Part shown: positions 12,763 through 45,575 of the stretch, piece after piece | How positions within the stretch are numbered: position 1 is the first letter of the stretch | Layout of the letters: every line of letters starts with the position of its first letter | Virus record (IMG/VR): IMGVR_UViG_3300037473_000433 | Coordinates: 1-46,088 of that record | Strand: one strand, 5' to 3' | Length of the DNA stretch: 46,088 bases | Source: a virus | Taxonomy: Duplodnaviria > Caudoviricetes | Notes under the pieces: generated by a model | The model's input: only the letters and a program-made list of their open reading frames with translations | Databases searched by the model: none | Told to the model about the DNA's origin: nothing | Made by a program: the position numbers and the translations under genes

Positions 12763-15255
12763 CTAAACCAAAGAAAGAAGCTCGGATTCGAGTTCCGCGT
12801 CGTCAATCTGACGGGACGCGGATTCGATGATTCGTTTTGCAATACCCGCATTTTTTACAGCCCCATACAAAAATTGGGCTGCAATGGCCGTATAGGACGC
12901 CGCGGACTTATCCGCATTATCAAATTGCGCCATCGTTCCCTGATGCCCGCATTCAGGGCATTTCATCATTTTGCCCGAGTCCTTAACGACAGCAAATTCC
13001 GGACGGGATTTCATGACGAAATCCGCCAGTTCCTTACGCGGACGATGTCGCGACGCGCCAGCCCATTGTTCGTTGATCAATTCGCGCTGTTCGCGGACCT
13101 TCTCCAGGGCCTGTTTGACGGCCGGGGAAATTTCGATTTCGTCCTGCTCGGAAATCGACTTGGCGTATTCCGACAACTCAAACAGATGCGCCCCGGACAT
13201 CCCGTCCGTTTCCGCGACGACGGTTTTCCGTTCCGCGTCGGGGAGATCGGGGAGCCATTTTGATAGCATCCGTTCCCTGACCTTTTCGTCCGGACAGTCG
13301 AATTTCAGGACGTCGTGGAAACGCCCCGGACGATCCAACAGGGCCTCGGGCAGACGTTCCGGGAAGTTGGTAGTCAGAATCGTGATCACGCCCGACGAAC
13401 GCCCGACGCCGTCCATTTCAGCCTTCAGCAAATCGATCGTGTCGTCATAGAACCAGTTGTCGATATCCTCCATCACGATCACGCAGGGGGCCAGTTCCTT
13501 CGCCAGGCTGTACGCATATCGGATACCGCCGTACGGGCTGAAATAATACAGGTCCCGCGCGCTGATCCAGATGAACGACGCCTCAGCCTGGTTTTTGACG
13601 ACGCGGGCGGATAGGGTTTTTCCGGTGCCCGGCGGCCCCATGAAAACCATCCCGCGATTTGCCGCGCGGCCCTGTTTTTCGTTGAGGTTTTTCAGCATCC
13701 GTTCAATCGGGGTTTGCTGCTTGCCGTCGAGGAAAACATCCTCGAACGACAGTTCGTCCCGCGGCAGGAATTCCCCGGACAGCGAAAATGCCTCGCCCTT
13801 CAGGAAATTATTCACCTTGGCCCATTCCCAGGATTTTTCAATAACGGCCCGATTCTTGGCCTCGTTTTTCAGGGACGTGTAAACCGTCATGTAAATCCCC
13901 GTCCATGTCGGGGTATATTTCACGACGAACGGGCCGTCCGGCCCAACATAAAATTGCATCCCCTCGATCAGAAACGACGCGTTCCGTTCAGATGTCAGTT
14001 CAATCACCTCGTACGCTGGCGGGTTTTCCCGGCCCTCGTGCGTGATGTTCCGAACATCCTGAACCTTGTCGTTGACGCAAACCCGCTGAACGCCCGTCAG
14101 GAACGAACCCATTCGGGCAGACGGAATATCCGTCGTGTTTTTGAACAGGTCCTTTACCTGGCAGTTGCAATGTTTTGCAACCCATTCGTACTCGAGTTTC
14201 GACGCCTCGAGGTACTCGTTGTTCGTGTCGAACTGTTTGCGGTTGAACCGCGCGGACAGTTTCAGATTCCAACGCGGGGCGGATTTGTCGACGGGATATT
14301 CCGTGATCCCCGTCGCGTCATCCGTCGCGGGCAGTTGACGTTCGGGTCGTTCCGTCGTTTCCTCAGGCTCCTCGGCCGGCGCATGATTTTTCGTCCCGCA
14401 ACTGCAGGCCGCCTTCGGCGTCAAAACAGTCGTCGTGAATGTTTCCGGGGGCTGGGTCTTTGGGGCCAATTCTGCAACGCTTGTGCTCAGCCTGTTGAAT
14501 TTGTCATCCAGTTCAACCAGCCGTTGCGGCGAAAACGCGAACGTTTTGATTCGGTTGTCGAAATACGACTTGGCCCATTGTTTGATCAGAGGGTCGTGCA
14601 GTTTCCCGCGGCTGAAAACAGTAATAACCGCGTCGACATTCGACGGGACGGAAACCGTTGACGCCTCGAAAACCTTGAATTTCGTGATGTGCCAACCGTC
14701 CGTACCCTTCAGCGGCTCATACCCATCCTCCTCGGGCATGAATCCGTGGGAAATCCGCAGGGCGCCCATGTCGATCAGGGCCGCGGCATCGCGCCCCTGG
14801 GCAATGTCCGCGATCGCGAACCGGCCGCGGGCCTCGTTATCGGTATGGCTGATCAGACTGACCATTTTGCCGATCGGGGCCATCGGAATGTGCTGCCAGA
14901 GCAGCGGCATCCGCAAATCAAACGATGCCCCCTTCGTCTCCAGCACGTCCCCGTCCCGATCGCGCGTCGTCGTAGTAATGACGCAGTCGAAATCCATGAT
15001 CGAACCGTGGGACAGGGACAGCCCGGCAATGCCGACGTCCTTGATGTCCATGTCGGGGTGACTGTACGTCAATTTCCCCTCGGCCGCGGCGAGTTCCTTC
15101 TGCCAGTCCCCCGGGGGATGGTCGCCGTACAGTTTCGTCGGGCAGAGGCCGCCGTTGAGGCAACCCTCAATTTCCCGAAAATACCTGTCTGCGCGAATGA
15201 TTCCGTGTTTGCTGGTTTTGGCGGACGCGAGGATCAATTCGCGGGACATTGGCAT
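12763..15255 (-). CDS. HK97-type prohead protease fused to an AAA+ ATPase and a C-terminal CxxC motif
   Basis: N-terminal DRDGD, PLLWQH, ISHGF, FEASTVSVPSN (protease); Walker A GPPGTGKT, Walker B VIVMEDID, sensor/arginine finger TTNFPERLPEALLDRPGRF; CPECGH. Confidence 0.85.
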   Translation of the reverse strand: MPMSRELILASAKTSKHGIIRADRYFREIEGCLNGGLCPTKLYGDHPPGDWQKELAAAEGKLTYSHPDMDIKDVGIAGLSLSHGSIMDFDCVITTTTRDRDGDVLETKGASFDLRMPLLWQHIPMAPIGKMVSLISHTDNEARGRFAIADIAQGRDAAALIDMGALRISHGFMPEEDGYEPLKGTDGWHITKFKVFEASTVSVPSNVDAVITVFSRGKLHDPLIKQWAKSYFDNRIKTFAFSPQRLVELDDKFNRLSTSVAELAPKTQPPETFTTTVLTPKAACSCGTKNHAPAEEPEETTERPERQLPATDDATGITEYPVDKSAPRWNLKLSARFNRKQFDTNNEYLEASKLEYEWVAKHCNCQVKDLFKNTTDIPSARMGSFLTGVQRVCVNDKVQDVRNITHEGRENPPAYEVIELTSERNASFLIEGMQFYVGPDGPFVVKYTPTWTGIYMTVYTSLKNEAKNRAVIEKSWEWAKVNNFLKGEAFSLSGEFLPRDELSFEDVFLDGKQQTPIERMLKNLNEKQGRAANRGMVFMGPPGTGKTLSARVVKNQAEASFIWISARDLYYFSPYGGIRYAYSLAKELAPCVIVMEDIDNWFYDDTIDLLKAEMDGVGRSSGVITILTTNFPERLPEALLDRPGRFHDVLKFDCPDEKVRERMLSKWLPDLPDAERKTVVAETDGMSGAHLFELSEYAKSISEQDEIEISPAVKQALEKVREQRELINEQWAGASRHRPRKELADFVMKSRPEFAVVKDSGKMMKCPECGHQGTMAQFDNADKSAASYTAIAAQFLYGAVKNAGIAKRIIESASRQIDDAELESELLSLV

Positions 15256-18072: not shown

Positions 18073-19743
18073 CTAATCGCCCCCATTCTCCGCGTCAATC
18101 GACGCCGCCATACTGGCAATGAGCTCGCGCTTCTCGCGCTGAAACCTATCAGACGGATCCTCATTCCGCAACGCGTCTATATCGGACTGCATCGGGGACG
18201 CGACGTTCACGACGAACATCCCGCCGAACTGGACCTTATTGGACAGGGCCAGGCGATTGAACGCGCCCGCCGCGGCATCCGCCCGGTCCTTCAATTTCCG
18301 GGTGTCCATAATCTCATCCCCGGACAGCGCATCCAGTTCCGCCTCGAATCCCCGCCAGTCCCAGTCATCCGACGTGATTACAGTAACATTTCCGGCCTGT
18401 TGCTGAACCGCCAGCGGGCGCCAGCGGGACGCCTTGGAACCGGACGCCGTCACGGCAAAAACGGGATAACCCGACAACGAACGAATACTGAATTTGGCGG
18501 CAAATTTACCGCCTGAACCGGGTTCCTGTTCCATCCCGATTTCGACGTAACCCCAGCGCTGTCGATCCTTCTCGGCATTCGACAGCATCCGATCCTCGAC
18601 GTCGAAATCCGACCATCGTCCGCAGTCGCAGCCCAGCACATAAAAATGCGGCATGCGCAGCATGCGTTTTGTTTTTTCGTCAGACAACCAGTCAACCCGC
18701 ATCGCCATCAGGACTCCCGCCGTACGCGCGCCCGCGCCCCCCTCAGTGCCGGCCTTATCCCAGAACCGACAGAACGTGTATTCCCCGGGCGGCAACGCCC
18801 CGGCGCGTTTCCATTTGTCGCGCGGGAAAATCATCCCGGCCGCCGGCCGAATCTTCCAGTTCCCGCGCAGCAGGCGTTCGCGTTCGACAACGTCCAGGGC
18901 CATAAGGTTTGCCATGTACCCGGGGTCGTTCCGCATCAACGCGGTATTATCCTCGACGTTGGCCGCGACGAACGTAAACGATTTTGGGCGTTCCTGTGCG
19001 TTCTGCAGTAGAACTTCGCGCGCGTCCCCCTCGACCTCATCAGGAATCAGGGTTTTTGCAAATTCAACCGCGGACGCCCGATCATCGAACCAGTGCATTT
19101 CGTCACGATCGCGGACGAACCAGCGGATAACGCCGGAACGGGCCTGGATCGGATATCCCGTCTCCTGATCGATCCACCAGGCGATTAGTTCCGCCACCCA
19201 TGATTCAGAATCCGGATTGCATGTCGCGCGCACATACGGACGAACGCCGCAGGTTGATCGGTTACGCGACAGCATGAACCAGAACTGTCGGCTGGAAAAC
19301 TGCGTCAATTCGTCCCAACAGAGCAACGGAATTTGCGCCCCGCGCCAGTTTTCCGTGTCCTGATCATGCTGCATATGCGCGAATGAAACCGTCGCCCCGG
19401 ATGGGAACGTATGTTCCAGCCGCGTCTCAATCGCGACGGTGTTCAACTGCCCGTACAGCGCGTTGGATTCGTCCCAGAGACCGCCCTCGTTGCGAATCTG
19501 CGGGTACGTCTGCCGGAAAATGACGGCACCGAATCGGGGGTTATTGATATGCCGCAGGGGTTCCAGAAGCAGATAGTACGATTTGCCGCCCCCGGCCGCG
19601 CCCCCGAAAATGAGAATGTCCGCAGGCGACGCGCAGGCTGTTTCCTGCGGGCCGGCCTGCGGACGAATCTCAATTGCCTTCCCCATCGCGTCGAACGCGC
19701 GGGGTTTCTGCGTATTCTGCTTTTTACGTCCGGGACGTCCCAC
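18073..19743 (-). CDS. terL: Terminase large subunit
   Basis: Walker A FGGAAGGGKS, Walker B WDELTQF, ATCNP, nuclease motifs RFWDKA and EQEPGSGGK. Confidence 0.92.
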   Translation of the reverse strand: MGRPGRKKQNTQKPRAFDAMGKAIEIRPQAGPQETACASPADILIFGGAAGGGKSYYLLLEPLRHINNPRFGAVIFRQTYPQIRNEGGLWDESNALYGQLNTVAIETRLEHTFPSGATVSFAHMQHDQDTENWRGAQIPLLCWDELTQFSSRQFWFMLSRNRSTCGVRPYVRATCNPDSESWVAELIAWWIDQETGYPIQARSGVIRWFVRDRDEMHWFDDRASAVEFAKTLIPDEVEGDAREVLLQNAQERPKSFTFVAANVEDNTALMRNDPGYMANLMALDVVERERLLRGNWKIRPAAGMIFPRDKWKRAGALPPGEYTFCRFWDKAGTEGGAGARTAGVLMAMRVDWLSDEKTKRMLRMPHFYVLGCDCGRWSDFDVEDRMLSNAEKDRQRWGYVEIGMEQEPGSGGKFAAKFSIRSLSGYPVFAVTASGSKASRWRPLAVQQQAGNVTVITSDDWDWRGFEAELDALSGDEIMDTRKLKDRADAAAGAFNRLALSNKVQFGGMFVVNVASPMQSDIDALRNEDPSDRFQREKRELIASMAASIDAENGGD

Positions 19744-22583: not shown

Positions 22584-22838
22584 TCAGGCCTTCTCAAAAA
22601 CATGCCAGACGAACGGCGGCTGTTGAAATGATCCGACATGGCGATTTCCGGACGGGGGAACTGGATGCCCCGTGCCGACAATCAGAAATTCCCGTTGCAC
22701 CATAGGTTTTGCGGGATCGACCAACGCCCACATACAAGGCACGCCGAACTGAACGTCAATCATGAGGATTTTCGCGTCGGCCGGCATCTGAATACTGATA
22801 CGATAATCGACGGCGAATGTGTACTTGTAAACAATCAT
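22584..22838 (-). CDS. Conserved-looking phage hypothetical protein
   Basis: 84 aa IVYKY...MPADAKIL...WALVDP...GTGHP...VWHVFE. Confidence 0.75.
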   Translation of the reverse strand: MIVYKYTFAVDYRISIQMPADAKILMIDVQFGVPCMWALVDPAKPMVQREFLIVGTGHPVPPSGNRHVGSFQQPPFVWHVFEKA

Positions 22839-22871
22839 TTTTTCCCTCCACTAACAGTATCGGAACGAACG

Positions 22872-23459
22872 ATGCCGCACGTCCATGCCTACGGGGACAG
22901 TCATAGCTGGATGTTCCGGGGCTACCCGAATTGCAGCGTCCACCATGTCGGGGGCGTCCTGATGTACCGGATCGGACGCGACGGGTTTACGTTCCCGCCC
23001 GTCCCAGCGCCGGGCGATGCCTGCGTTTTCGTATTCGGGGAAATCGACGTCCGCTGTCATATCGCGCGGATCGCGGAACGGGACAAACGGAATATCGTAC
23101 AGGTTATGATCGAACTGGCGACGGACTACCTGACGTCAATCCAGCGGTTCGCGATGGCGTACGAAATTACCCCCGTCGTCTGCTGCATTCTGCCCGCCAG
23201 CGACAGGGGACATGAAAACAGCCTGCCGGTTTACGGTCCGCTCTGGCAGCGTTCGCTTGTCACAATCGGCATGAACGAACTGTTGCGGCGCGGCTGCGAT
23301 TCAGCAGGCGGAATCAAATTCCTGGACTACTGGGGGGAATTCGCGATGTCAGACGGATCGTTACGGCATGACAGATCGGACGGGCTGTTGCATGTCGCGG
23401 AAAAATTCTACCCGATCGTGCATGCCGCGTTGAATCAATTGCTCAGCCGGGATCCCTGA
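22872..23459 (+). CDS. SGNH/GDSL-family hydrolase (esterase or acyltransferase-like)
   Basis: Block I YGDSHS, FGEIDVRCH, C-terminal SDGLLH; opposite strand to its neighbours. Confidence 0.75.
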   Translation: MPHVHAYGDSHSWMFRGYPNCSVHHVGGVLMYRIGRDGFTFPPVPAPGDACVFVFGEIDVRCHIARIAERDKRNIVQVMIELATDYLTSIQRFAMAYEITPVVCCILPASDRGHENSLPVYGPLWQRSLVTIGMNELLRRGCDSAGGIKFLDYWGEFAMSDGSLRHDRSDGLLHVAEKFYPIVHAALNQLLSRDP

Positions 23460-25164: not shown

Positions 25165-25774
25165 CAGGGTCGAGCCCATCGCCCTGGCTCCGATTTCGTG
25201 CGACTTTTGGACTAAATCTAATTGATTTGGCCTGAATTATGCATATCTGCCATCAAATCAATTTAATTCTGCTGTCAAATCAATTCGAATAAATAGGGAA
25301 TTAAATTGTTCAATCCTACGTCAGCGCAAACTATGCATATATAGGGGGGAATACCGGGGGCTGACATGGGGCGCAACAGGGGAATATCCCAATGAATAAC
25401 GGGGGGATTACAATTTCCCGCAGTTGCATCGGGTATTTAATTAGGGAAATCGATTGGGACTGCATTAAACGGGTTCTGCAGGGCCGCGGATAATAGGGGC
25501 CGATCGAATTACGGGGCAGGAACCGGGGGCGTCATAGGGGCGGATATACGTTTCTGATTCGGCGCAGGCATGGGGCGCAGAAATGCGATTTGGGCAGTTA
25601 TGGCAATCTTGAGAAATCGATTCATTTTAGCTAAGTCATTAGTGGAAACAGGGATCGGCCAGGTTTTTGCATATCTGTCTGATGGAAAACGTCGCCATAA
25701 GTACCAAAAAGGGGGGTATTTCCACTGTATAGTGTAGGCTGTTGATTGATGACAACGAAACAGGAACCGCGAAA

Positions 25775-25981
25775 ATGATTACGAAACTGGATACAGAACT
25801 GGTTGCGGGAATGGTTGAAACCCTGCTGACGGGCGTTTCCCTGCTGTCATGGGGGGATTTCTACAACGACAACGGAACCATCGATCTGGACATCGTCGCC
25901 GAAACCGAATCCGGCGAAACGATCAACCGGACGATTCGCCTGAACCCTGATAACGGACAGTTCCGTTTGCGGGCCGTCTGA
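25775..25981 (+). CDS. Array gene 1, small acidic hypothetical protein
   Basis: 68 aa from ATG 25775 after CAGGAACC. Confidence 0.7.
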   Translation: MITKLDTELVAGMVETLLTGVSLLSWGDFYNDNGTIDLDIVAETESGETINRTIRLNPDNGQFRLRAV

Positions 25982-26045
25982 TCCGCGAAACCCCCCGCAA
26001 TAGGTTTCTGAAACCCAAAACCGAATTCAACAGGAAAACCGAACC

Positions 26046-26222
26046 ATGATTCTGACATCCCGCGATATCGAAAACCTGACGCGAAACGAAATGATTTCCC
26101 TGCTGGTTCAGATCGATCGAAATGGCATCTGGACAGATCGCGACAGCGAATTGCATGGATACGGCCCGCTGTCGGCCGATGACGCAAAACAGGCCCTGAC
26201 GGATCTGATTACCCGCGAATAA
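26046..26222 (+). CDS. Array gene 2, 58-aa hypothetical protein (absent from the ORF track)
   Basis: MILTSRDIENLTRNEMISLLVQIDRNGIWTDRDSELHGYGPLSADDAKQALTDLITRE*; repeat and AGGA leader. Confidence 0.75.
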   Translation: MILTSRDIENLTRNEMISLLVQIDRNGIWTDRDSELHGYGPLSADDAKQALTDLITRE

Positions 26223-26225
26223 CTG

Positions 26226-26254
26226 TTGACAGCAGTTGTATAGATTTCTATACT
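26226..26254 (+). promoter_or_regulatory. sigma70-type promoter with overlapping palindromic operator
   Basis: TTGACA-N17-TATACT; GTATAGA-TT-TCTATAC at 26238-26253. Confidence 0.85.
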
Positions 26255-26307
26255 GATACCAGCCCGAACCAGAAACCCCCGAACCCCGAACCGACAGGAA
26301 AACGACA

Positions 26308-26601
26308 ATGGATCCCAACGCATGCTATCGCAGGATTTTCGAATCATTCGCCAATGGCGATTTTCAGGACGCGTTTGATGCAATCGACGATTTGCGGCAA
26401 TGGCTGGCGAATGCGGGATTTGAACCTGAATGGGAAAACGTCCCCAATGGCTGGACAATCAATACATTTTCCGAACCGTCAACGTTCGGTTGGGCCGCGG
26501 GAACGCATGTCGTTACAGAATTTATCGCCCCGAACGGAATGACGCGCCGGGAAATCGGCCCGTTGCGCTGTCTGGAACGCCTGATTCAAAACGCGTCCTG
26601 A
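26308..26601 (+). CDS. Array gene 3, hypothetical protein
   Basis: 97 aa MDPNAC...WLANAGFEP; CAGGA leader. Confidence 0.75.
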   Translation: MDPNACYRRIFESFANGDFQDAFDAIDDLRQWLANAGFEPEWENVPNGWTINTFSEPSTFGWAAGTHVVTEFIAPNGMTRREIGPLRCLERLIQNAS

Positions 26602-26656
26602 ACCCCCGCAATGGGTTTCTGAAACTAAAACCCGAATTCAACAGGAAAACCGAACC

Positions 26657-26965
26657 ATGAAAATCGAACAGATTGAAATCAGTAGCGCCATTGACGACAA
26701 AAACAGGATTCATCTGGTTGTTGAACGGTTCCCGGAAAAACGCGTTGTCGTCAAAACGTCCCGCGTTGTCATCGAATCGGGCGCCATGTTCAAAACCGAT
26801 CCTGTCGAATGCATCGCAATCTACCCTGACAACAACGCGGCCTGTCGCATGACGAAATATCAATCGCTGGCGAACCGCATCGGGCCAATCGATCAGGCGT
26901 TGGATCTGACCAAATTCGATTGGCTGGTTCGAACCCTGCTGGAATATCCCCTGATCCCGCGCTAG
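26657..26965 (+). CDS. Array gene 4, hypothetical protein
   Basis: 102 aa; leader nearly identical to that of gene 2. Confidence 0.75.
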   Translation: MKIEQIEISSAIDDKNRIHLVVERFPEKRVVVKTSRVVIESGAMFKTDPVECIAIYPDNNAACRMTKYQSLANRIGPIDQALDLTKFDWLVRTLLEYPLIPR

Positions 26966-27006
26966 GCAAAACCCCCGTTAGTAATTTCTGAAACAGGAAC
27001 CAGATC

Positions 27007-27573
27007 ATGAATTACAAAAAAATCCCGTCGTCAATTCCCGGATGCCCAGAAACCAAACGCGTTCTGGGGGCTGACGAAATTCAGAACCTGCCGTTGGGGC
27101 TGTCGTTGACAGATCCGAAAACCGGATGGCGATATGTTGTCGTCATATGGCGCGCCGATGACGGAACGGTTTCCCGGGTTCTGCGTTCTGTCATGGAAAA
27201 CGATAAATTCGGAAACTACCTGAATGCCGAATCGCCGATCATTCCTGATCTGATCCCTGATCTGCCAACAACCGGACTGGCGTTTTGCTGGATGCAGAAC
27301 GAAATTGCGGCCGACATGAAATCGGGCATCGTCCCCGAAACCGTCGCATCGTTTTCCGAACTGCATGACTACGTAGATGCGAACTGCTACGGGGGCGCGG
27401 AATTCGAATTCATCCGAACGGACGGAACCGATGAATCTGAATCTGCGGCCCGGGATGCAATTGACGATGTCTACGCCCCCGCAATGGAACGCGTCAACGA
27501 TTGGCTGGCCCAACGGGCCAAATTGCGGCAACTGCTGGCAGCCCGGGATTCGGCAGATTGCGCCTATGCCTGA
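27007..27573 (+). CDS. Array gene 5, hypothetical protein
   Basis: 188 aa containing VPETVASFSELHDYVDANCYGG; repeat and CAGGAACC leader. Confidence 0.75.
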   Translation: MNYKKIPSSIPGCPETKRVLGADEIQNLPLGLSLTDPKTGWRYVVVIWRADDGTVSRVLRSVMENDKFGNYLNAESPIIPDLIPDLPTTGLAFCWMQNEIAADMKSGIVPETVASFSELHDYVDANCYGGAEFEFIRTDGTDESESAARDAIDDVYAPAMERVNDWLAQRAKLRQLLAARDSADCAYA

Positions 27574-27632
27574 AACCCCCGCAACGCGTCGCATTAATCC
27601 GAACCCAAAACCCCCGCTAGGATGTTTCTGAA

Positions 27633-28034
27633 ATGAACCGAACCGACAAACTGACTGCCCCCGTCATGATTGCCCCGAACCTGAATGCAGGCGTTAAAAT
27701 CGGCGACGCATGGGTAACAATCGGCTATTCTGATCTGCCCCCGAATGAACGGGGCAGGACGCGCTACCGATGGGAAATCATTTTCGCCGATGGGACGACA
27801 GAATCGGCTGACGACATGCGTTCCGGATGTCAGGGCGGAAACCTGACAGATGGATTGAAATCCCTGCTGTCGTATCTGTCGGCTGCAGCCGAATCCTACC
27901 GATACAACGGAAACGCGTACAATGCAGATCCCGACAGCAATTGCAGCCTGTTTTCTGAACGCGTTGTTGAATTCGCATACCAGAATGACGACGAAATCAG
28001 CATGACAGAATACGAAATCGAAAACCCCGAATAG
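27633..28034 (+). CDS. Array gene 6, acidic hypothetical protein
   Basis: 133 aa; ATG abuts the repeat (TTTCTGAAATG). Confidence 0.7.
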   Translation: MNRTDKLTAPVMIAPNLNAGVKIGDAWVTIGYSDLPPNERGRTRYRWEIIFADGTTESADDMRSGCQGGNLTDGLKSLLSYLSAAAESYRYNGNAYNADPDSNCSLFSERVVEFAYQNDDEISMTEYEIENPE

Positions 28035-28080
28035 TTCCCGCGAAACCCCCGGCTAGTAATTTCTGAAACAGGAACCAATC

Positions 28081-28251
28081 ATGTCAGACTATGAAATTTT
28101 CGAACTGATCAACGACGACGAAATCGGAGAACTGCTGGGGGATGTCAGCGCTGATAACGAAATTGACGCGCAGGAATTGGCCGAACAAATGTTCCCGGGC
28201 CAGCCTGTCATCGTCTGCGAAAATTCCGACATCTGGGGCGGACGGGCATAA
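28081..28251 (+). CDS. Array gene 7, 56-aa highly acidic protein (absent from the ORF track)
   Basis: MSDYEIFELINDDEIGELLGDVSADNEIDAQELAEQMFPGQPVIVCENSDIWGGRA*; 15 D/E versus 1 R. Confidence 0.75.
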   Translation: MSDYEIFELINDDEIGELLGDVSADNEIDAQELAEQMFPGQPVIVCENSDIWGGRA

Positions 28252-28301
28252 CCCCCCCCGCAATAGATTTCTGAAATCCGAACCAGACTGGAACCCCGAT
28301 C

Positions 28302-28580
28302 ATGACAACGAAAAACCCGATTCAGGAATTGCAGGATGCAGCCCCCGGGCTGGCCGATCTGCTGGCAAATCATCTGCGGGCCAATGGGCCGGATGTCGTT
28401 TTCAACGCGTTGCATTCCGCATGGATCGATGCAGCCGAATTCCTGAACGAATCCCCCCAGTATGGGGCAGTTAAAACAACGTTGCAACTGTTGGCGGACG
28501 TCGCGAACGGACATGGCAGCATGATTGTTGAAACCCGCCCCCGCGCCTATTTCCGAACATCGGTTCGGTTCCGGGAATAG
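28302..28580 (+). CDS. Array gene 8, hypothetical protein
   Basis: 92 aa flanked by repeats. Confidence 0.7.
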   Translation: MTTKNPIQELQDAAPGLADLLANHLRANGPDVVFNALHSAWIDAAEFLNESPQYGAVKTTLQLLADVANGHGSMIVETRPRAYFRTSVRFRE

Positions 28581-28646
28581 TCCGGAACCCCCGCTAGGAT
28601 ATTTCTGAAACCCAATCCAAACCCCGAACCCGCAGGAACCCCCGCA

Positions 28647-29195
28647 ATGCGTTTTCCGAAACTAATGACAGTCTGCATCGTCCTGAACATTGCCGCGATT
28701 GCAATTGGCGCCGTAAATCTGGTTGCCCGGAAACCAGGCATTTCCGAAATTGGAATTTCGACGCGCATCGAACAGGGGGAAATCCTGCTGCGGATCGATG
28801 GCGACGATTTCGGCATGGATGCGGCCTGCGCCCGATCCGTTGCAGACGCGCTGCGGATGTCAGCCGATGAACTAGACGCGATGTTAATTTCCCCTGAACC
28901 CCCGAACCTAATCATCTGGAACCAGAAAATGCAAATTCAAATCGTTCAATTCAGATTTGGCGGCGAAACGTTTTCCATGTTCATCAGCGCGCATGCCGAA
29001 AACGTTGTCATTCAGAAATCGGGCGCAGTTGTCGCGAAAATCGATATTGAATCCCATGCGTCAGGGGACGTCGATCCGATGCGCAATGCATGGGAAACTA
29101 TAGTAGGAAACCGCGGTTGGACAATCGATCAGTTCAAAACATTCCGAACCGTCGTCGACATGCTGGCCGCTAGCGCGTTGACAACAATCGTATAG
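28647..29195 (+). CDS. Array gene 9, N-terminal hydrophobic helix; probably two cassettes fused in frame (second start at 28929)
   Basis: 182 aa; internal leader remnant GAACCCCCGAACCTAATCATCTGGAACCAGAAAATG at 28896-28931. Confidence 0.65.
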   Translation: MRFPKLMTVCIVLNIAAIAIGAVNLVARKPGISEIGISTRIEQGEILLRIDGDDFGMDAACARSVADALRMSADELDAMLISPEPPNLIIWNQKMQIQIVQFRFGGETFSMFISAHAENVVIQKSGAVVAKIDIESHASGDVDPMRNAWETIVGNRGWTIDQFKTFRTVVDMLAASALTTIV

Positions 29196-29206
29196 ATATC
29201 TATACT
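29178..29206 (+). promoter_or_regulatory. sigma70-type promoter with a perfect 16-bp palindromic operator
   Basis: TTGACA-N17-TATACT; GTATAGATATCTATAC at 29190-29205. Confidence 0.85.
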
Positions 29207-29258
29207 GGAACCATCGCGACGCAAACCCGAACCCTGAACCCCCGATTAGGAACCAAAC

Positions 29259-29645
29259 ATGATTACAAACATCGATCGTCAGTTTCTGCAGACTGTCCGG
29301 CCTGAACTGGAAACCGCGCTGGCGGATGTTGCGGCCCGATACGGCGTAAAAATCAGTCTGGGGAATTGTACGTTTTCATCTGGGGCCGCAACGTTCAAAC
29401 TGAACATTGCAACGAAAACGGAATCGGGCGATGTCATGACGCCTGATGCTGAAATGTTCAAACTGTCTGCGTATCAGTTCGGCCTGAAACCCGAAAACCT
29501 GTTCGCCGAATTTACCTATGGGGGCGAACGATACAAACTGACGGGACTGAAACCGCGCAGCCGATTCCCGATCATCGCGCAACGCCTGTCGAATGGAAAA
29601 TCGTTCAAACTGCCGATTGAATCCGTTATGGGAAAATTCGCCTGA
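29259..29645 (+). CDS. Array gene 10, phage hypothetical protein
   Basis: 128 aa; AGGAACC leader downstream of the promoter. Confidence 0.8.
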   Translation: MITNIDRQFLQTVRPELETALADVAARYGVKISLGNCTFSSGAATFKLNIATKTESGDVMTPDAEMFKLSAYQFGLKPENLFAEFTYGGERYKLTGLKPRSRFPIIAQRLSNGKSFKLPIESVMGKFA

Positions 29646-29727
29646 TCCCCCCGCAACCATCGTTCTGAAACCCGAACCCCCGCTAGTAATTTCTGAAACT
29701 GAAACCGCCGAACTAGGAAACCGAACC

Positions 29728-30159
29728 ATGAACATCAGCCTAACTAAAATCAAAACGTTTCGCGCCATGTCCCGGGAAACTGAATGTTTCGTCGCAACGA
29801 TCTGTCTGGATGGGAAACCCGTCGGAACAGTTCGAAATGACGGGGGCGGGGGGCCTGACTGGTTCGAATGGAATGATCAGGACATCGGCGAACAAATCGA
29901 AAAATGGGCCGCGGAATCGACAGGCGAAAAATTCGAACCGCTGTCATGCGTCATCGCGAATCTACTGGACGCGGCCGATGAACTGAAACAACTGAAACGC
30001 TGGACGAAATCCGGCGCGCAGACAGTCTATCGACTGACAGATATGAAACCCGGCGCATGGTTGATTCTGAAAACCCCGTTCAACGAAACGACGCGCGACG
30101 CGTTGAAAACGAAACATGGGGACAAACTGGCGGAAATCGCCAATGATCGATTCGCCTGA
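29728..30159 (+). CDS. Array gene 11, phage hypothetical protein
   Basis: MNISLTKIK...SRETECFVATICLDGK...RNDGGGG; ATG follows a tandem repeat and AGGA. Confidence 0.8.
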   Translation: MNISLTKIKTFRAMSRETECFVATICLDGKPVGTVRNDGGGGPDWFEWNDQDIGEQIEKWAAESTGEKFEPLSCVIANLLDAADELKQLKRWTKSGAQTVYRLTDMKPGAWLILKTPFNETTRDALKTKHGDKLAEIANDRFA

Positions 30160-30309
30160 TCCCCCCGCTATGGGTTTCTGAAACGAAAAACCCGGCGCCC
30201 TTGGGCCAACGAAAAACGAAAAACCGCGAATTGACAGAGATTTCTATACTGGAATCATCGGGCCGGGAACCGCGGCCCATTCGAACCCCGAACCAACAGG
30301 AACCAGATC

Positions 30310-30834
30310 ATGAAACGCCCAGTCAGCCCCAACCAAATCGCCCGATTTCAGGCCCTGCGTAAATTCGTTCCCGATCTGCGGAACGTCCCGTCAGCCGAAT
30401 TCGACGAACCTACCCCGGGTTTCATTTATCCCGTCAACGAAACAGACAAATTCCCCCTATGGATTGCGATCGATCCGAAATCAGGGACGTTTTTCCCGGG
30501 GGATGAATTCGCAATCGGCAAATACAATGCAGCCGATTTGAACGATTGCGAATCTGCTGTCATCGCGTTCATTTCCGATGAACAGGGGGCAGAATTCCCC
30601 CCGGTTCCCGCGCCGGAATCCGATTGTCTGGTTTGGCCGATCGTCGAATATTTCGATACGTCGTCAGATGCCAGCGTTTTCGAAAATCGCTGTTTCAATG
30701 CCAAACTGACGAACCGAACCGCGGCCGATATCAAATATGAAAATGGGAAATGGGCCGCGCGGTTTGAAACGCCATGCCCGAAACAATGCGCGGCAATCGC
30801 GCATGCTGTCCGCCATCCAGTTTTTTCAGTTTGA
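30310..30834 (+). CDS. Array gene 12, hypothetical protein
   Basis: 174 aa; CAGGAACCAGATCATG leader identical to that of gene 5. Confidence 0.75.
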   Translation: MKRPVSPNQIARFQALRKFVPDLRNVPSAEFDEPTPGFIYPVNETDKFPLWIAIDPKSGTFFPGDEFAIGKYNAADLNDCESAVIAFISDEQGAEFPPVPAPESDCLVWPIVEYFDTSSDASVFENRCFNAKLTNRTAADIKYENGKWAARFETPCPKQCAAIAHAVRHPVFSV

Positions 30835-30891
30835 ACCCCCGCAACGCGTTTTCCGAACCGAACCCCCGCAACGTACATTCAGGAACCAACC

Positions 30892-31365
30892 ATGTCAGAC
30901 TATCGCAAAAACCTGCTGGATGCCCGCGTAGCAGCCCGGAACCAGGCCCATTCGATCGCAAACGAACTGCAGGCGAAATTGATTGATGCGGCCCGTCCAT
31001 TCATCGGCAAAAAAATCATCAATGCCGATGGTACGCTGGCGAAATCGTTCGAATCCAAACTGCCCCCGCTGCCATTCGGAAATGGGATTCGTTGTTACCA
31101 TGATCGGTATCAAACGCTGTTGGAATTTTTTCTGGACGTCTGTAAACATGTCGTTGGGGATTCGGGCTGCGTCTACGAAAAAACGTCAATCAGCGTAGGG
31201 ATTCTGGACGGGGGGATTCTGGTTTCCGTCCGCGAACCAGAACCGAAACGGACAGACTGGACAGCCGACGAAATCATTGCGGCCCGTCAGACAGCCGAAA
31301 ACCTGCGACGTCAGGCCCAGGACGCAGAAAACGCATGCGGCCCGTTCGGGCTGGTTGATCGGTAG
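30892..31365 (+). CDS. Array gene 13, hypothetical protein
   Basis: 157 aa; AGGAACCAACCATG leader. Confidence 0.75.
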   Translation: MSDYRKNLLDARVAARNQAHSIANELQAKLIDAARPFIGKKIINADGTLAKSFESKLPPLPFGNGIRCYHDRYQTLLEFFLDVCKHVVGDSGCVYEKTSISVGILDGGILVSVREPEPKRTDWTADEIIAARQTAENLRRQAQDAENACGPFGLVDR

Positions 31366-31446
31366 GAACCCCCCGCTATTCGATTTCCAAAACCCCCGCT
31401 ATGGGTTTCTGAAACCAAACTGAACCCCGAACCATAGGAACCAACC

Positions 31447-32061
31447 ATGTCATTTTCCGGTATGTTAGGATTCGTCGCCCCGAAACCCGTTTCCCCGCAT
31501 CGCATTGAATGGGACAAAATCGCCGCGAAAATCGTTGAACTGGGAGGCGATGTCCGGTTGCAGGGAGATCATCCATTTGAATATGGGCATGCGATCGTCC
31601 AGGTTCGCGACGCGGCAACAATCGCCGCGGGGGGAAAACCGGAATCGATTTCCATTGAAATCAAAATGACGTATACCGGCGCGTCGAAATGGACGCGCGG
31701 GCGTCCGACAGGGAATTACAAAATCTGCATCGGCGCCGGCCGGGATGCGGAACGCCTGGGCGGGGGCAAAAACGGAATTCCGTATCTGAACGTAGCGCAT
31801 CGCGTCATAGCGCATGCCCACATGAAACAGCGCGAAAACGAAAACCGGATCAAACGGGATGCGGACGAAAAACGCCAGACGGAAATGGTTGCATGTCTGC
31901 GGGCGCAATTCGGAATGGAACATCCGGATTATTCAGGGCGTCCCGTCATTAGCGCTAGCCCGCATTCGTTTTCGTCGATCCTGCTGCAATTCGAAACCGA
32001 CAACCCCGCGGCCGTTTACGAATTGGTTTCGCTGGCCCAGGCATTGGGCGTTTGGAAATAA
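31447..32061 (+). CDS. Array gene 14, hypothetical protein
   Basis: 204 aa; AGGAACCAACCATG leader. Confidence 0.75.
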   Translation: MSFSGMLGFVAPKPVSPHRIEWDKIAAKIVELGGDVRLQGDHPFEYGHAIVQVRDAATIAAGGKPESISIEIKMTYTGASKWTRGRPTGNYKICIGAGRDAERLGGGKNGIPYLNVAHRVIAHAHMKQRENENRIKRDADEKRQTEMVACLRAQFGMEHPDYSGRPVISASPHSFSSILLQFETDNPAAVYELVSLAQALGVWK

Positions 32062-32067
32062 TTGGTT

Positions 32068-32134
32068 CCATGCGGGGCTGGTTCCCCCGCATGGGTTCGG
32101 GCGCGCCGGCAGGACTGGTTCCCCTGCCGGCGCG
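32068..32134 (+). other. Tandem GC-rich hairpins sharing a CTGGTTC loop (candidate structured RNA)
   Basis: CCATGCGGGG-CTGGTTC-CCCCGCATGG (32068-32094) and CGCGCCGGCAGG-ACTGGTTCC-CCTGCCGGCGCG (32102-32134). Confidence 0.65.
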
Positions 32135-32186
32135 ATTTCAACCATACCCCCGATTACTGCCTTCTGAAAACAAAACAGGAAATACC

Positions 32187-32732
32187 ATGTCAACAACCAT
32201 CCGCAAAAACGCGTTCCAGAAAATTCATAACATCCTGTCGGGCTGCGTCCTGATTCGCCAGTTCAAATACGATGACATGGGGAATGACATGCAAACCGTT
32301 TCCGCTGACGACGTCATCGCCGCGGGCCGCGAATATGAATTCGATCGGGTTTCGGAAACCGACGATCAAATCCGCTGCAGCATCCATCGCAATTTCGCGT
32401 TTACCGGATACAAATCGATCGATGGGGCGCGCCGGACGATGACGCCCAGGGCATTTCGGGAATGTTTTTCATGGGTTGATGCAGACGGGTTTATCCCGCT
32501 GGCGGATTTCGAACGGGCGACGGCCGAATTCGGCGCGTTAGTTTCCGGCGCGCTGCGTCCCCATCATGACGACGACGAGACCCGGTTCCATCTGTTCGCG
32601 ACGAACGGCGCGGAAATCTGCGAACAGTTGGGACATATCATCATTGATGAATCATCCGCCGGCCCCGATTCCGGGAATATGGACTGGGCCTGCGCCGTCT
32701 GCGGATTGTCCGCGTCCGTCCCGTTGTACTAA
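32187..32732 (+). CDS. Array gene 15, hypothetical protein with C-terminal Cys/His zinc-binding-like motif
   Basis: Start MSTTIRK after CAGGA; CEQLGH...CAVCG. Confidence 0.7.
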   Translation: MSTTIRKNAFQKIHNILSGCVLIRQFKYDDMGNDMQTVSADDVIAAGREYEFDRVSETDDQIRCSIHRNFAFTGYKSIDGARRTMTPRAFRECFSWVDADGFIPLADFERATAEFGALVSGALRPHHDDDETRFHLFATNGAEICEQLGHIIIDESSAGPDSGNMDWACAVCGLSASVPLY

Positions 32733-32786
32733 ATCCCCGCTACGCGTTTTCTGAAACCCCCGCAACTAATCATCTGGAACCAAATC

Positions 32787-33101
32787 ATGCGACTGAAATC
32801 AATCGTCCTCGATACCGAGGAGACGACTGAAAATCCTAACGATTCAATAGAGATCCGTCTGGAAAAAACATGGACTACAGACGGGACGCGGATTTACCTG
32901 TCGGCCGTCCTGAAGCTATGGGACGGACATCTAAACAGGAATTCGGAACGCATCCTGCATCAAACCTGGATCTGGGCATTTGCCACAGAAATCCGGACCG
33001 CGATCGAGTCTGTATTGCGCGCCCCAATCGGGACAATTCCGCGAAGGTACGGCGATCGCGACGTTTCGTTAATTGCTGAACAGATCAACCGTCTACGATA
33101 A
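32787..33101 (+). CDS. Last array gene, hypothetical protein
   Basis: 104 aa flanked by repeats; contains several GAG/AAG/CTC unlike the other array genes. Confidence 0.7.
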   Translation: MRLKSIVLDTEETTENPNDSIEIRLEKTWTTDGTRIYLSAVLKLWDGHLNRNSERILHQTWIWAFATEIRTAIESVLRAPIGTIPRRYGDRDVSLIAEQINRLR

Positions 33102-33128
33102 CCCCCGCTATGGGTTTCTGAAACGAAA

Positions 33129-33156
33129 ATGGGCCGTCGCGAAATCGACGGCCCAT
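33129..33156. terminator. Hairpin between converging transcription units
   Basis: ATGGGCCGTCG-CGAAAT-CGACGGCCCAT; T-rich run on the minus-strand side. Confidence 0.65.
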
Positions 33157-33242
33157 CCAGGGATTATTTACCCTTCGGTTTTGGTTTTCGTTTACCGCCA
33201 GCGCATGCCACTAGGATCACCCCCCTTCCATGAAAAATAGAA

Positions 33243-33506
33243 TCAACCATCCGCAGACGTCCGCCGATGGATCCCAGACGCCCCCGGGCCAGTCCGGCGG
33301 ATAGATACCGCCCCAGGCCCCACGCGGCTGAATGACGCATCCCCGGGCCAGACAGGCGCCGGGGGCAGGGCGGCGGATTCGGACGCGTACAGATGCATCA
33401 GATGCAGCCTGTCCCCTACGGAATCGGCGGCCGGGGGAATGGATAACCGCCAGGGAACGGAATACCCGATCAATGACAGCCGTTTTGCGTACGTATCAAC
33501 AGCCAT
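33243..33506 (-). CDS. Small hypothetical protein, possibly virion-associated
   Basis: Start at MAVDTYAKRLS, 87 aa. Confidence 0.55.
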   Translation of the reverse strand: MAVDTYAKRLSLIGYSVPWRLSIPPAADSVGDRLHLMHLYASESAALPPAPVWPGDASFSRVGPGAVSIRRTGPGASGIHRRTSADG

Positions 33507-33549
33507 CAAACCCCCCGGCAACTGCCTTCTGAAAACAAAATCAGCCCGC

Positions 33550-33930
33550 TTAACCCGTAACCGTTTCCCCTGTTCCCGGATCGGCCGGTTTGTCGTTCGC
33601 AGCCCGGGCCGCCGCCAGGGTTGCATCCAGCTCGGCCTTCGATGCCGTCAATTCCGACAGCAATTTGTCTGCCGCCGCCCGCTGTTCCGCGGCAGTTTTC
33701 AAATCGAGCTCAACCGCCGCCCGGGCCTTCTGGACGTCAGTTTGAACAGCAGCGGACGCCAGGGCGGCCGACAACTGTTCCCGTTCTGCCTTCAGCGTCG
33801 CGTACGACATGCGTTCCCGTCGCGCCGTTTCCTCGGCCGCCGCGGCATTTTTCAAATGTTCCGCCATCGCCGCATTAACGAGATTCAGCCGGGCGATTCC
33901 ATCCTGAACCTGTTTTTCCAAATCAGACAT
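33550..33930 (-). CDS. Ala-rich coiled-coil protein
   Basis: 126 aa heptad-like Ala/Glu/Lys composition. Confidence 0.65.
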   Translation of the reverse strand: MSDLEKQVQDGIARLNLVNAAMAEHLKNAAAAEETARRERMSYATLKAEREQLSAALASAAVQTDVQKARAAVELDLKTAAEQRAAADKLLSELTASKAELDATLAAARAANDKPADPGTGETVTG

Positions 33931-33964
33931 ATTGCATATACCCCCGGCTACGTGCTTCCAAAAA

Positions 33965-34027
33965 ATGTAACGCGATCTGCGTTACATCCGCAGACCAGAA
34001 TTCATCGCGTAACGCAGTTTGCGCTAC
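33965..34027. promoter_or_regulatory. Pair of inverted-repeat sites GTAACGC-N5-GCG(T/C)TAC
   Basis: ATGTAACGC-GATCT-GCGTTACAT (33965-33987) and GTAACGC-AGTTT-GCGCTAC (34009-34027). Confidence 0.5.
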
Positions 34028-34054
34028 CCCCGGCTAGGTGCTTCCAAAAACAAA

Positions 34055-40119: not shown

Positions 40120-40236
40120 TTAGTGGGCTCGGGAAAGAATGGAGACGATGAAGGAAATGACTGCCCCAGATATGTTAAATCCAAGGCCGAACAGCAACCC
40201 GATCAGAACGGTTCGGAACGAAACTTCGAGATTCAT
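40120..40236 (-). CDS. 38-aa membrane peptide
   Basis: MNLEVSFRTVLIGLLFGLGFNISGAVISFIVSILSRAH*; ATGA overlap with the upstream stop. Confidence 0.45.
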   Translation of the reverse strand: MNLEVSFRTVLIGLLFGLGFNISGAVISFIVSILSRAH

Positions 40237-41264
40237 GATGAATTCTCCCAAACCAACATTTGGCGATAACCAGACGGGCACGATGCGCAGGGAACAGATC
40301 GCATGACCCATCGTCCCTGCGGGGCGACAACAGTTTGCGCCTGACGATTCAATTGTTGCTGAATGGCATTGCACATCTGACAGCGGGGGTTGTTGCAGAC
40401 GCGGCCGGTGTATGCCTGGCCGTCATATATGGCGACCGGCTGTTGCTGAACAGCCCGGGGCTGCCGCCAGATCCATACATCCCCATTCTGCTGCATCTGC
40501 AGACCATCGACTGGGTGGAACGGGGTTGCAAAACGATTCAGCTTGAGCAGCCGCGGTTTCAGTTTCGTGAGCAGATCGGGGTACAAATAAGCAACGCCGA
40601 CGTCCCCCTCGACCCTAGCCGTCAACACATCCCCCTCGATAACCTGAACCCTGCCGAATACCCCAGCCTCGTCTGCCGCCCGACGCGCACGATCAACCTG
40701 CAGCGGATCGATTTCAATACCCACAGCGCGGCAATTGTAAATCCGCGCCGCCTCAATCAACCAGCGGCCATCACCGCAACCAAAATCGACAAACGTCTCG
40801 TGGGGTTGCGGATTCAATAGGGCCAACACACGACGGATTTCGGGGATCGGCGTTGGAGATTGGCCGACATTCGTCCCGGCCCGTCCGGAAATTATCAGCG
40901 GGACCTCGTCCCGTCGAAAATTCGCAAGGCCGGTAATCTGGTCATCCTGACTGTACCGATACAGAGGGAATTGCCGCGGCCCGGCGGCGGTGCTGTAATG
41001 CAACGTCGGGGTCGATTGAACCCAGTCCGGTTTATCCTTCTGAACAACCAGCCGAATTTCAGGAATCGCCCCAGCCTCTAGCAATTTCTTAGCGCGTTCG
41101 CAGGGAACGCAACCCGGCGCCGAATAAAGAACCACAAACGGGCGGGTATCCAGTTCCGCCTGCGCAGATTTTACCGACGCATCGAATAAATCGAATTTCT
41201 GCGTCGGATCGTCAAACAGATCAAATTGTCCCGCCAGGGCGGCGGCAAGGATGATTGCGTTCAT
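40233..41264 (-). CDS. Thioredoxin/glutaredoxin-like domain fused to a class I SAM-dependent methyltransferase
   Basis: YSAPGCVPCERAK (CxxC); motif I FVDFGCGDGR, VGIEID, VAYLYP; signal-like N-terminus; Cys-rich tail. Confidence 0.8.
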   Translation of the reverse strand: MNAIILAAALAGQFDLFDDPTQKFDLFDASVKSAQAELDTRPFVVLYSAPGCVPCERAKKLLEAGAIPEIRLVVQKDKPDWVQSTPTLHYSTAAGPRQFPLYRYSQDDQITGLANFRRDEVPLIISGRAGTNVGQSPTPIPEIRRVLALLNPQPHETFVDFGCGDGRWLIEAARIYNCRAVGIEIDPLQVDRARRAADEAGVFGRVQVIEGDVLTARVEGDVGVAYLYPDLLTKLKPRLLKLNRFATPFHPVDGLQMQQNGDVWIWRQPRAVQQQPVAIYDGQAYTGRVCNNPRCQMCNAIQQQLNRQAQTVVAPQGRWVMRSVPCASCPSGYRQMLVWENSS

Positions 41265-44596: not shown

Positions 44597-45007
44597 TCAA
44601 CTACTGTTGTCGTAATAATGGCCCAGCAATGCATCAATTGCCGCCGCATGACGTTCTATCTCGCGAATCCTATCGGGCGGCAGTCCCTCAAATCCCACCA
44701 ACAGGATTTTGGTGATCCGCAACAGGGATTGATTTTTGTTAATTTGATTCTGCGACGCCTCAACGGTCCGCTCATAACTATCCGCCAGTCGTTGCAGATT
44801 CAGGGCATTCTGTTTGATGTGCTCCGTCGCGGTATTTGTTAGCGTAATCTGGGCATTGATCACGGTTGGTCCGTATTTGATCAACCCGACCAGCAAAACA
44901 ACGACTATCGCTCCGGCCCATCCAAATTTTTCAACGAGCTTCGTGAATCCATCCCAGACAGACAAATCGACGGGATCAGCCGCCAGGAGCAGAAACGCTG
45001 ACTGCAT
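44597..45007 (-). CDS. Single-TM plus coiled-coil membrane protein (holin-like)
   Basis: FGWAGAIVVVLLVGLI, then coiled coil; start placed at MQSAFL. Confidence 0.55.
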   Translation of the reverse strand: MQSAFLLLAADPVDLSVWDGFTKLVEKFGWAGAIVVVLLVGLIKYGPTVINAQITLTNTATEHIKQNALNLQRLADSYERTVEASQNQINKNQSLLRITKILLVGFEGLPPDRIREIERHAAAIDALLGHYYDNSS

Positions 45008-45575
45008 TTTCGCCCCCTGCAACCCGTTGTAGTTCCGCCCATTTCTGGGTGCTGATATCCCGACAGGTCCCAACAAATACGCGATGTTCGCCGGACGCGT
45101 CCCAGATTTCAGAAATCGTCAACCGCAGCGGGAATAGCGTTCCGTCCTTTTTACGTCCTATCAGATCCCGCCCGACGCCGATAATGCGTTTTTCCCCTGT
45201 TTTCAAATACGCCGCAATGTACCCATCATGGGCGGAATGGTACGGTTCCGGCATCAGTAGTTTAACGTTCTCGCCAACCAGTTCACCCAGTTTGTATCCG
45301 AACAGCATGACAGCCGCCGGATTGGCATTCTGGACAATCCCATCCTCGCCGATCTGGACAGTCGCCTCGCCGACGTCGCAAAGTTCGCGGGTATGGGGAA
45401 TGGCGCGGATCAGCGACAACGTTCGACGGTAGCCCCACCAGGCGAACGCAGCGACGATCAACGCAAGCACGAGAATGGCTGGCGCGGTATCCAATGCTGT
45501 CAACCGAATGGGGTTCCCGCCGCCATTGGGACCGTATGGATACCCAAACGATAGCAGGCCGGGCGTTGATTGCAA
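44976..45575 (-). CDS. Membrane-anchored stand-alone PAS domain protein, FixL heme-PAS-like (start uncertain)
   Basis: TM helix, then NPAAVMLFGY...LVGENVKLLMPEPYHSAHDGYIAAYLKTGEKRIIGVGR...GRKKDGTLFPL...FVGTCRDIS. Confidence 0.8.
   Translation of the reverse strand: MQSTPGLLSFGYPYGPNGGGNPIRLTALDTAPAILVLALIVAAFAWWGYRRTLSLIRAIPHTRELCDVGEATVQIGEDGIVQNANPAAVMLFGYKLGELVGENVKLLMPEPYHSAHDGYIAAYLKTGEKRIIGVGRDLIGRKKDGTLFPLRLTISEIWDASGEHRVFVGTCRDISTQKWAELQRVAGGENAVSVSAPGG

Follow-up and report, generated by a model that had tools for sequence, protein, structure and literature searches.

The window, the 46,088-nucleotide (nt) virus record IMGVR_UViG_3300037473_000433 analysed here at its full length, is a linear contig with a CheckV completeness of about 50% and encodes a siphophage (tailed phage). 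Its sole long plus-strand block is a cassette array of 16 open reading frames (ORFs 1 to 16; 56–204 amino acids), which sits upstream of, and divergent from, the operon leading to the terminase. Two features of this block are reported, a two-box repeat between its genes and a near-total lack of the four short words GAG/CTC, AAG/CTT, CAC/GTG and GACC/GGTC, the latter having been missed by a preliminary description of the same DNA. The zones and sites concerned are as follows.

25736..32786, no strand: purged zone, 10 copies of the four words against about 284 expected (word counts)
25208..25607, no strand: non-coding stretch, 0 copies of the four words against 16 expected (word counts); candidate genome-end or cis region, the end position being presumed
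25608..25735, no strand: 128-bp island in which the words are as frequent as normal (8 sites); its right end is marked by a −10-like TATAGT, 25728–25733
25991..26013, plus strand: first copy of the two-box motif (pattern and matrix scan)
26602, 26971, 27610, 28045, 28254, 28587, 28638, 29647, 29676, 30161, 30835, 31369, 31392, 32146, 32733 and 33101, plus strand: starts of the further motif copies within the array (scan)
33511..34049, plus strand: three motif copies (starts 33511, 33940 and 34026) among minus-strand genes, box B beginning with CTT

Counting between 25771 and 32740 revealed 1 copy of CAC/GTG, 2 of AAG/CTT and 5 of GAG/CTC, against 88, 63 and 100 expected from the rest of the contig, and GACC/GGTC was found twice in the array against 55 expected. 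Runs without any of the three trinucleotides extend over 2394 bp and about 2070 bp. The further one moves from the array's promoter end, the denser the four words become, with successive values of 0.4, 0.5, 2.5 and 3.8 per kb (0.4–0.5 up to position 30000, 2.5–3.8 after it), compared with 40.3 per kb elsewhere in the contig and 43.9 per kb just left of 25208. Each of the words contains an adenine followed by G or C. In the coding part (5889 nt), 2 words were found in frame and 3 out of frame, where 174 out-of-frame copies were expected from synonymous shuffling (lowest of 500 shuffles, 145) and 291 from shuffling of codon order; the purge is therefore not a matter of codon choice. Since the word set is closed under reverse complement and was removed in every frame, it points to selection on double-stranded DNA (dsDNA). 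ORF 16 carries 9 words (28.6 per kb); being unpurged and placed between motif copies, it is likely a recent arrival.

The purge is reflected in the encoded proteins, because glutamate or lysine before a codon starting with G must spell AAG or GAG, so that the products of purged genes lose such pairs. Glu/Lys-[AGVDE] dipeptides numbered 0 against 78 expected in 15 array proteins, and 235 against 314 in 25 other proteins. Among the best 150 members of its family, ORF 11 is the only one without such a pair, the family median being 9; relative to the family, S-E-E-T has become S-R-E-T, the R replacing an E that 69 of 127 aligned relatives share, and K-G has become T-D. Relatives of ORF 6 retain the pairs. 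The ORF 11 relative P0130 has the same substitution and 1 pair versus 5, and may, on this protein-level likeness, be kin; searches with ORF 11 and P0130 yielded no viral locus.

Among 157 sequences of at least 3 kb, the lowest observed-to-expected ratio (O/E) of the trinucleotides in any 3-kb window was 0.0 for the present contig and 0.146 for the next. The lowest 3-kb value was 0.51 in the first 30 kb of T5 and 0.45 in T7, and the first 20 kb of Murciavirus CPG1g retains the words; as these three are unpurged, known site avoidance does not normally reach this degree. In 170 further loci, 11 of which overlap with the set of 157, O/E averaged over the three words had a median of 0.96 and a minimum of 0.82. 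Among the matches listed, the purge was absent from all 244 loci compared except this phage's own three. Outside the array, the three trinucleotides stand at O/E values of 0.42, 0.40 and 0.63 in the structural region of the phage, and the rest of the contig contains 0 copies of GGGCCC, CAGCTG, CCATGG and ACCGGT (24, 14, 9 and 7 expected), the usual mark of Type II avoidance. The halved words and the missing Type II palindromes together imply that restriction-type selection acts on this phage, and the absent palindromes predict Type II specificities of its host. Gapped patterns such as AC-N6-GT, which appeared depleted, were rejected, as they are self-complementary, were counted twice and do not hold up against about 1000 tests. 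No description of a regional trinucleotide purge was found in the literature searched, a search that most subscription papers lie outside and that is no proof of novelty.

The repeat has the consensus CCCCG-S/W-A-N4-5-TTTCYRAAA and occurs in 20 copies, all on the plus strand and confined to 25991–34049. The exact pattern AACCCCCGCWA-N3-6-TTTCTGAAA was matched 6 times in the window, never on the minus strand, and in none of 100 shuffles. With a two-box matrix, which is partly circular in that it was trained on 19 of the copies, and a threshold of at least 21 bits, 20 distinct sites were counted over the whole window, 17 of them within 25775–33156 and 3 beyond (33511, 33940 and 34026); the best score outside 25990–34050 was 17.5, and the minus strand nowhere reached 12. 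Box A (CCCCG) starts no more than 12 nt after the stop codon in 13 of the 16 ORFs; of the three ORFs that lack it there, two have a sigma-70-like promoter behind them and the third has hairpins. The preliminary description, which had placed a polar motif directly after the stops of co-oriented ORFs, is thus confirmed on this point, as it is on its AGGA-ATG leaders, which are visible in the sequence, and on its near-identical leaders: 25992–26049 and 26603–26660 agree in 93% over 58 nt, 30162–30189 is identical to 33102–33129, and TTCGCCTGATCCCCCCGC is present at 29637 and 30151. Its coordinates were right, except that the motif runs about 900 bp past the end it had given.

Copies at or beyond the edge of the array begin box B with CTT, and inner copies with TTT. 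The motif usually lies 12–40 nt upstream of a separate AGGA-ATG, the copy at 27610 carrying AGGA just before ORF 6, and the spacers are mosaics of common 16–29-nt blocks. No common RNA fold (0 consensus pairs) and no Rfam family was detected for the repeat copies, a PtaRNA1 match being rejected at 24 bits against a cut-off of 47. A Chi-like reading of box A was likewise rejected, as coding DNA showed a mild strand bias only (CCCCG, 18 versus 8), which results from proline codons. The fixed spacing of the two boxes and their polarity on one strand suggest that the repeat is also a candidate dsDNA-binding site for a phage or host protein. Two strict patterns matched only this phage among the viral contigs scanned; the leader pattern gave at least 118 single-match loci, and the metagenome scan at least 121.

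Three further observations concern the right part of the motif zone. The same motif allele at 32146–32175 and 33511–33540 flanks a 1.36-kb block with ORFs 15 and 16, in the manner of a target duplication. Overlapping inverted repeats at 33965–34020, between two motif copies and upstream of a 126-amino-acid minus-strand gene, are terminator-like on the minus strand. A hairpin near 33131–33153 was not called a terminator.

The genes and other features of the array are listed below.

25775..25981, plus strand: ORF 1, 68 amino acids, acidic (isoelectric point 4.2)
26046..26222, plus strand: ORF 2, 58 amino acids, acidic
26226..26254, plus strand: sigma-70-like promoter TTGACA-17-TATACT (11/12), near-palindrome GTATAGATTTCTATAC over spacer and −10
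26308..26601, plus strand: ORF 3, 97 amino acids; follows ORF 6 in a sister-strain contig
26657..26965, plus strand: ORF 4, 102 amino acids
27007..27573, plus strand: ORF 5, 188 amino acids; no usable Atlas match
27633..28034, plus strand: ORF 6, 133 amino acids, phrog_21648 (unknown function)
28081..28251, plus strand: ORF 7, 56 amino acids, 15 acidic versus 1 basic residue
28302..28580, plus strand: ORF 8, 92 amino acids
28647..29195, plus strand: ORF 9, 182 amino acids; internal spacer-like stretch near 28898–28930
29178..29206, plus strand: sigma-70-like promoter (11/12), perfect 16-bp palindrome GTATAGATATCTATAC at 29190–29205
29259..29645, plus strand: ORF 10, 128 amino acids, Y4mA_C (PF27402) family, unknown function
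29728..30159, plus strand: ORF 11, 143 amino acids; family of 1111 representatives
30231..30258, plus strand: third promoter-like site (10/12), like a shortened copy of the other two
30310..30834, plus strand: ORF 12, 174 amino acids
30892..31365, plus strand: ORF 13, 157 amino acids
31447..32061, plus strand: ORF 14, 204 amino acids
32062..32140, no strand: pair of G+C-rich inverted repeats in the gap that separates ORF 14 from ORF 15, read from the sequence; no Rfam family at gathering score
32187..32732, plus strand: ORF 15, 181 amino acids
32787..33101, plus strand: ORF 16, 104 amino acids, not purged; motif copies on both sides

By composition, ORF 7 resembles a DNA mimic, and ORF 9 looks like two cassettes fused in frame. 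The structure models of ORF 6 and ORF 11 are confident (pLDDT 84 and 97); neither predicted fold matched a solved structure, and the sole match of the ORF 6 model was an uncharacterised mycobacteriophage protein. A palindrome, GTATAGAWWTCTATAC, recurs across the spacer and −10 of the early promoters (26238–26253, 29190–29205 and, partly lost, 30231–30250) and is likely an operator. Since the promoter scan as a whole was not above chance (5 found, 7.4 expected), only the two intergenic 11/12 sites, both in gaps without the motif, were relied on. The double hairpin at 32062–32140 also occurs in a 246-nt contig of run X5, followed by a copy of box A in a different context.

Gain, loss and shuffling of genes at the repeats, as proposed in the preliminary description, gain suggestive support from the mosaic spacers and the unpurged ORF 16, and weak support from two short contigs of sister strains. 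In the first (118 nt, depth 2.5), the end of ORF 6 is joined via the motif allele of 28585 to the leader and start of ORF 3, with 4 differences in 44 letters from the window, so that it stems from another strain; the second (124 nt, depth 3.9) skips 30192–30282, which holds the third promoter. Novel letters are present at the joints, whose position within the spacers varies. The two contigs are suggestive of gene exchange at the spacers. As to their role, the repeats likely provide homology for crossing over and are perhaps also candidate protein-binding sites. No tyrosine or serine recombinase, integrase or resolvase was detected in the record (about 50% complete), in line with the earlier remark that no dedicated recombinase is visible. 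The claim that the architecture is undescribed could not be upheld: in T4-type phages, recombination between promoter-terminator repeats (PeSL) shuffles small genes (PMC2839356, in the excerpts consulted), and 4 of 6 loci examined, out of 7 found, with homologues of ORF 6 have spacer repeats of their own, namely a CCTGGCAGCCCGG-type motif in L245 and promoter-like repeats in L246, L249 and L250. The repeat-punctuated array of small genes is a known architecture, and, across the collections scanned, the present motif belongs to this phage alone. As a separate observation, each small gene in L245:7000–12600 has its own promoter preceded by the conserved CCTGGCAGCCCGG-type motif.

To the left of the array, on the minus strand, lie the terminase (18073–19743), portal, protease-AAA fusion, HK97-type capsid and tail genes, and to its right, on the same strand, lysis-like, PAS, methyltransferase and Calx-beta genes. 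The best terminase match in the genome collection was a Planctomycetaceae bin (47%), Rhizobiales prophages being level at 46–50%, and no host was assigned. Loci of terminase relatives (80 viral and 80 genome loci) have little in common beyond terminase and portal, and neither the purge nor motif arrays were found in them. No DNA similarity to the record was found among 50,697 phage records; it was also matched in soil metagenome runs, and there was no RNA dataset among the runs listed as carrying it. The prohead protease is fused to an AAA ATPase domain (12763–15255, minus strand, 830 amino acids). A glycosyltransferase-like gene directly after the capsid gene (9443–10345, minus strand) and a glutaredoxin-methyltransferase fusion among the late genes (40233–41264, minus strand) might serve virion modification, and a PAS-domain protein (44976–45575, minus strand) adjoins an Rz-like gene in the lysis region. 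A lone plus-strand ORF within the minus-strand operon (22638–23459; no Pfam match) holds the longest run (300 bp) outside 25200–32800 in which none of the three trinucleotides occurs. The non-coding segment 25171–25314, a candidate packaging or origin element, was matched (8 differences) by single contigs of 151 nt in runs X2 and X3.

We read the array as the first-injected end of the genome, cleared of half-sites or 3′ ends of the targets of adenine-methylating restriction enzymes of the host, with the repeats as homology for recombination, a reading that we hold to be evenly balanced between right and wrong. GAG, AAG, CAC and GACC would have been removed as half-sites or 3′ ends of Type I, Type IIG or similar targets and, with these half-sites missing, no recombined specificity subunit that uses them would find a site before the early proteins act; DNA entering later would be only half depleted because it is shielded by then. 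Repeats and leaders would offer short homology for ordinary recombination, through which single genes could enter, leave or change places; newcomers, ORF 16 being an example, would be purged after arrival. In lambda, the terminus lies between the terminase genes and the end that is packaged last and ejected first. By this analogy, the first-ejected end would be where the array has its promoter end, and for this reason we infer that the array belongs to the leading region. The earlier suggestion of leading DNA gains strong, if indirect, support from the purge, from its rise in word density away from the promoter end and from the array's position upstream of the terminase operon and in divergent orientation to it. 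In other bacteria, the known half-sites of Type I systems include GAG and CAC, and each of the two target-recognition domains can be exchanged by recombination independently of the other (PMC3874165, as excerpted). For the enzyme Mme2I (AGAG-N6-GTG), only sites that lie within the first-injected region lead to restriction (PMC12455610), and the same rule is described for T5-like phages (PMC10644984), both as given in the excerpted text.

A wider form of this reading, which we put forward tentatively and somewhat short of an even chance, is that the phage lineage makes its entering segment invisible to sequence-reading defences by clearing whole 3–4-bp words from 7 kb of coding DNA and recasting its proteins accordingly, that the missing words read out a shuffling pool of Type I specificities or an undescribed host defence that recognises short words, and that the two-box site marks the segment for a protective or pulling protein while doubling as the joint of anti-defence cassettes. 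If true, the array would show defence-driven recoding taken in nature to an extreme at which it overrides protein conservation. Leading regions, and with them candidate anti-defence genes, could then be located in uncultured phages without recourse to function, by looking for word purges or for proteins devoid of Glu/Lys-[AGVDE] pairs; the extent of purging would date the arrival of a cassette, and the purged words would predict the recognition words of host defences.

Several findings weigh against reading the array as a leading end purged of restriction half-sites. The known cases, namely the T5 first-step region, T7 and CPG1g, are without such a purge, and at the DNA level it is known from one genome plus fragments, with no second phage. 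Nor does the rest of the contig conspicuously lack any full bipartite site. The purge has spared other common half-sites (CAG, GAC, AAC, GAA, CCA and TGA), so that a host-specific restriction repertoire is needed, and the unpurged 128-bp island at 25608–25735 lies at the supposed leading tip. The rearranged contigs are single, short (shorter side 29–30 letters), of low depth and of 80–85% likeness, they come from a run that may itself be the source of the window, and short-sided joints often stem from other organisms or repeats. Moreover, comparison of the cassette ORFs with Pfam anti-defence entries, PHROGs of known function, NCBIfam and PADLOC gave no match above noise, the PADLOC models being of defence rather than anti-defence proteins; with no family or fold match, the earlier designation of the cassette genes as anti-defence is not supported.

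Of the other causes of the purge that were considered, an uncharacterised host defence (a nuclease, DNA-modifying toxin or sensor) that reads 3–4-bp words directly in entering dsDNA would explain why the words are gone in any context, why their depletion elsewhere is context-independent with no longer site standing out, and why restriction avoidance in T5, T7 and CPG1g leaves them intact. It is nevertheless unlikely, since a host could hardly protect its own words without a modification system, which leads back to a restriction-modification-like model, and the words match documented Type I half-sites (PMC3874165, as excerpted). Rather improbable, too, is that virion DNA is modified at these words by the phage itself, with Mom-like or hypermodified bases, and that the part which host RNA polymerase transcribes first has to stay unmodified: the main purge does start just past the −10-like box at 25733 and spans the sigma-70-driven unit, with the island upstream of it unpurged, but the non-coding stretch 25208–25607 is empty as well, the words are halved rather than enriched in the rest of the contig, four Type II palindromes are missing altogether, which hints at DNA without protection, and no DNA-modification gene was recognised in 71 ORF queries, with half of the genome missing. 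That the words are protospacer-adjacent motifs (PAMs) of CRISPR systems (type I-E AAG and GAG) removed from early DNA is very unlikely. AAG is a type I-E acquisition motif and some phages show PAM depletion (PMC4246573, as far as excerpted), and both strands would be affected; however, the depletion published is slight, interference needs a spacer as well, ATG and AGG are not purged, and GACC and CAC are left unexplained. Adaptation of codons for fast translation, finally, would fit the near absence of in-frame GAG, AAG, CAC, GTG, CTC and CTT codons and the codon adaptation of plasmid leading regions (PMC13478746, as excerpted), yet it is practically untenable, being contradicted by the loss of out-of-frame and intergenic copies (out of frame, 3 versus 174–291), by a word set closed under reverse complement and by the loss of amino-acid pairs.

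Two alternatives concern the repeat. It might resemble a stoperator, at which a repressor would stop elongation through the early genes, with shuffling incidental, which would be compatible with any cause of the purge. We give this a minor but real chance: as with the stoperators of L5 (PMC9283540, in the excerpted text), the sites are asymmetric, number about 20, lie in short intergenic gaps and have no RNA structure, but their orientation should follow transcription, whereas three plus-strand copies lie among oppositely transcribed genes; the promoters have a different palindrome and are without the motif, and no repressor was recognised in the record (about 50% complete). As the motif zone coincides with the purged zone and disregards gene direction, a site acting at the DNA level fits better than a stoperator or a start-associated sequence. 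That the repeat is the site of a dedicated site-specific recombinase, as in integrons, would agree with stops abutting box A, single-gene units and two conserved boxes; it is a long shot, given a consensus hairpin of 0 pairs, the lack of a tyrosine or serine recombinase in the record at its stated completeness, and joints in sister strains with novel letters at varying spacer points.

In integron cassette arrays, single genes end at an attC repeat. The present array likewise consists of single genes ending at a repeat, but no hairpin and no integrase were found. As with PeSL (PMC2839356), which lie between non-essential ORFans as homology for gain, loss and reordering, the repeats would offer recombination homology between genes; unlike PeSL, described in the available excerpts as a sigma-70 promoter plus a terminator stem-loop, the motif is neither, as no sigma-70 promoter lies within the repeat, the terminator stem-loop is absent (0 consensus pairs), and the array has only 3 promoter-like sites. 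With L5 stoperators (PMC9283540), it shares about 20 asymmetric intergenic sites and, going by the excerpted description, differs from them in being two-boxed with a variable middle, in lying off promoters and in having 3 copies that ignore the direction of transcription. The start-associated sequences of cluster K (PMC3203893) are also polar repeats limited to the non-structural part of the genome; in the excerpted account, these contain the ribosome-binding site 3–7 bp before the start, whereas the present motif comes after the stop and, the copy at 27610 apart, has no ribosome-binding site in that place. The depletion itself resembles that of Murciavirus under Mme2I (PMC12455610) and of the T5 first-step-transfer region (PMC10644984) in that it affects a variable block of small early genes, and the Mme2I site, built from AGAG and GTG/CAC, includes words purged here. 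Murciavirus and T5, as far as described in the excerpts, lose single full sites, whereas the array loses whole 3–4-bp words over 7 kb at a cost to protein sequence; the purge is thus a much stronger variant of a known strategy of restriction avoidance.

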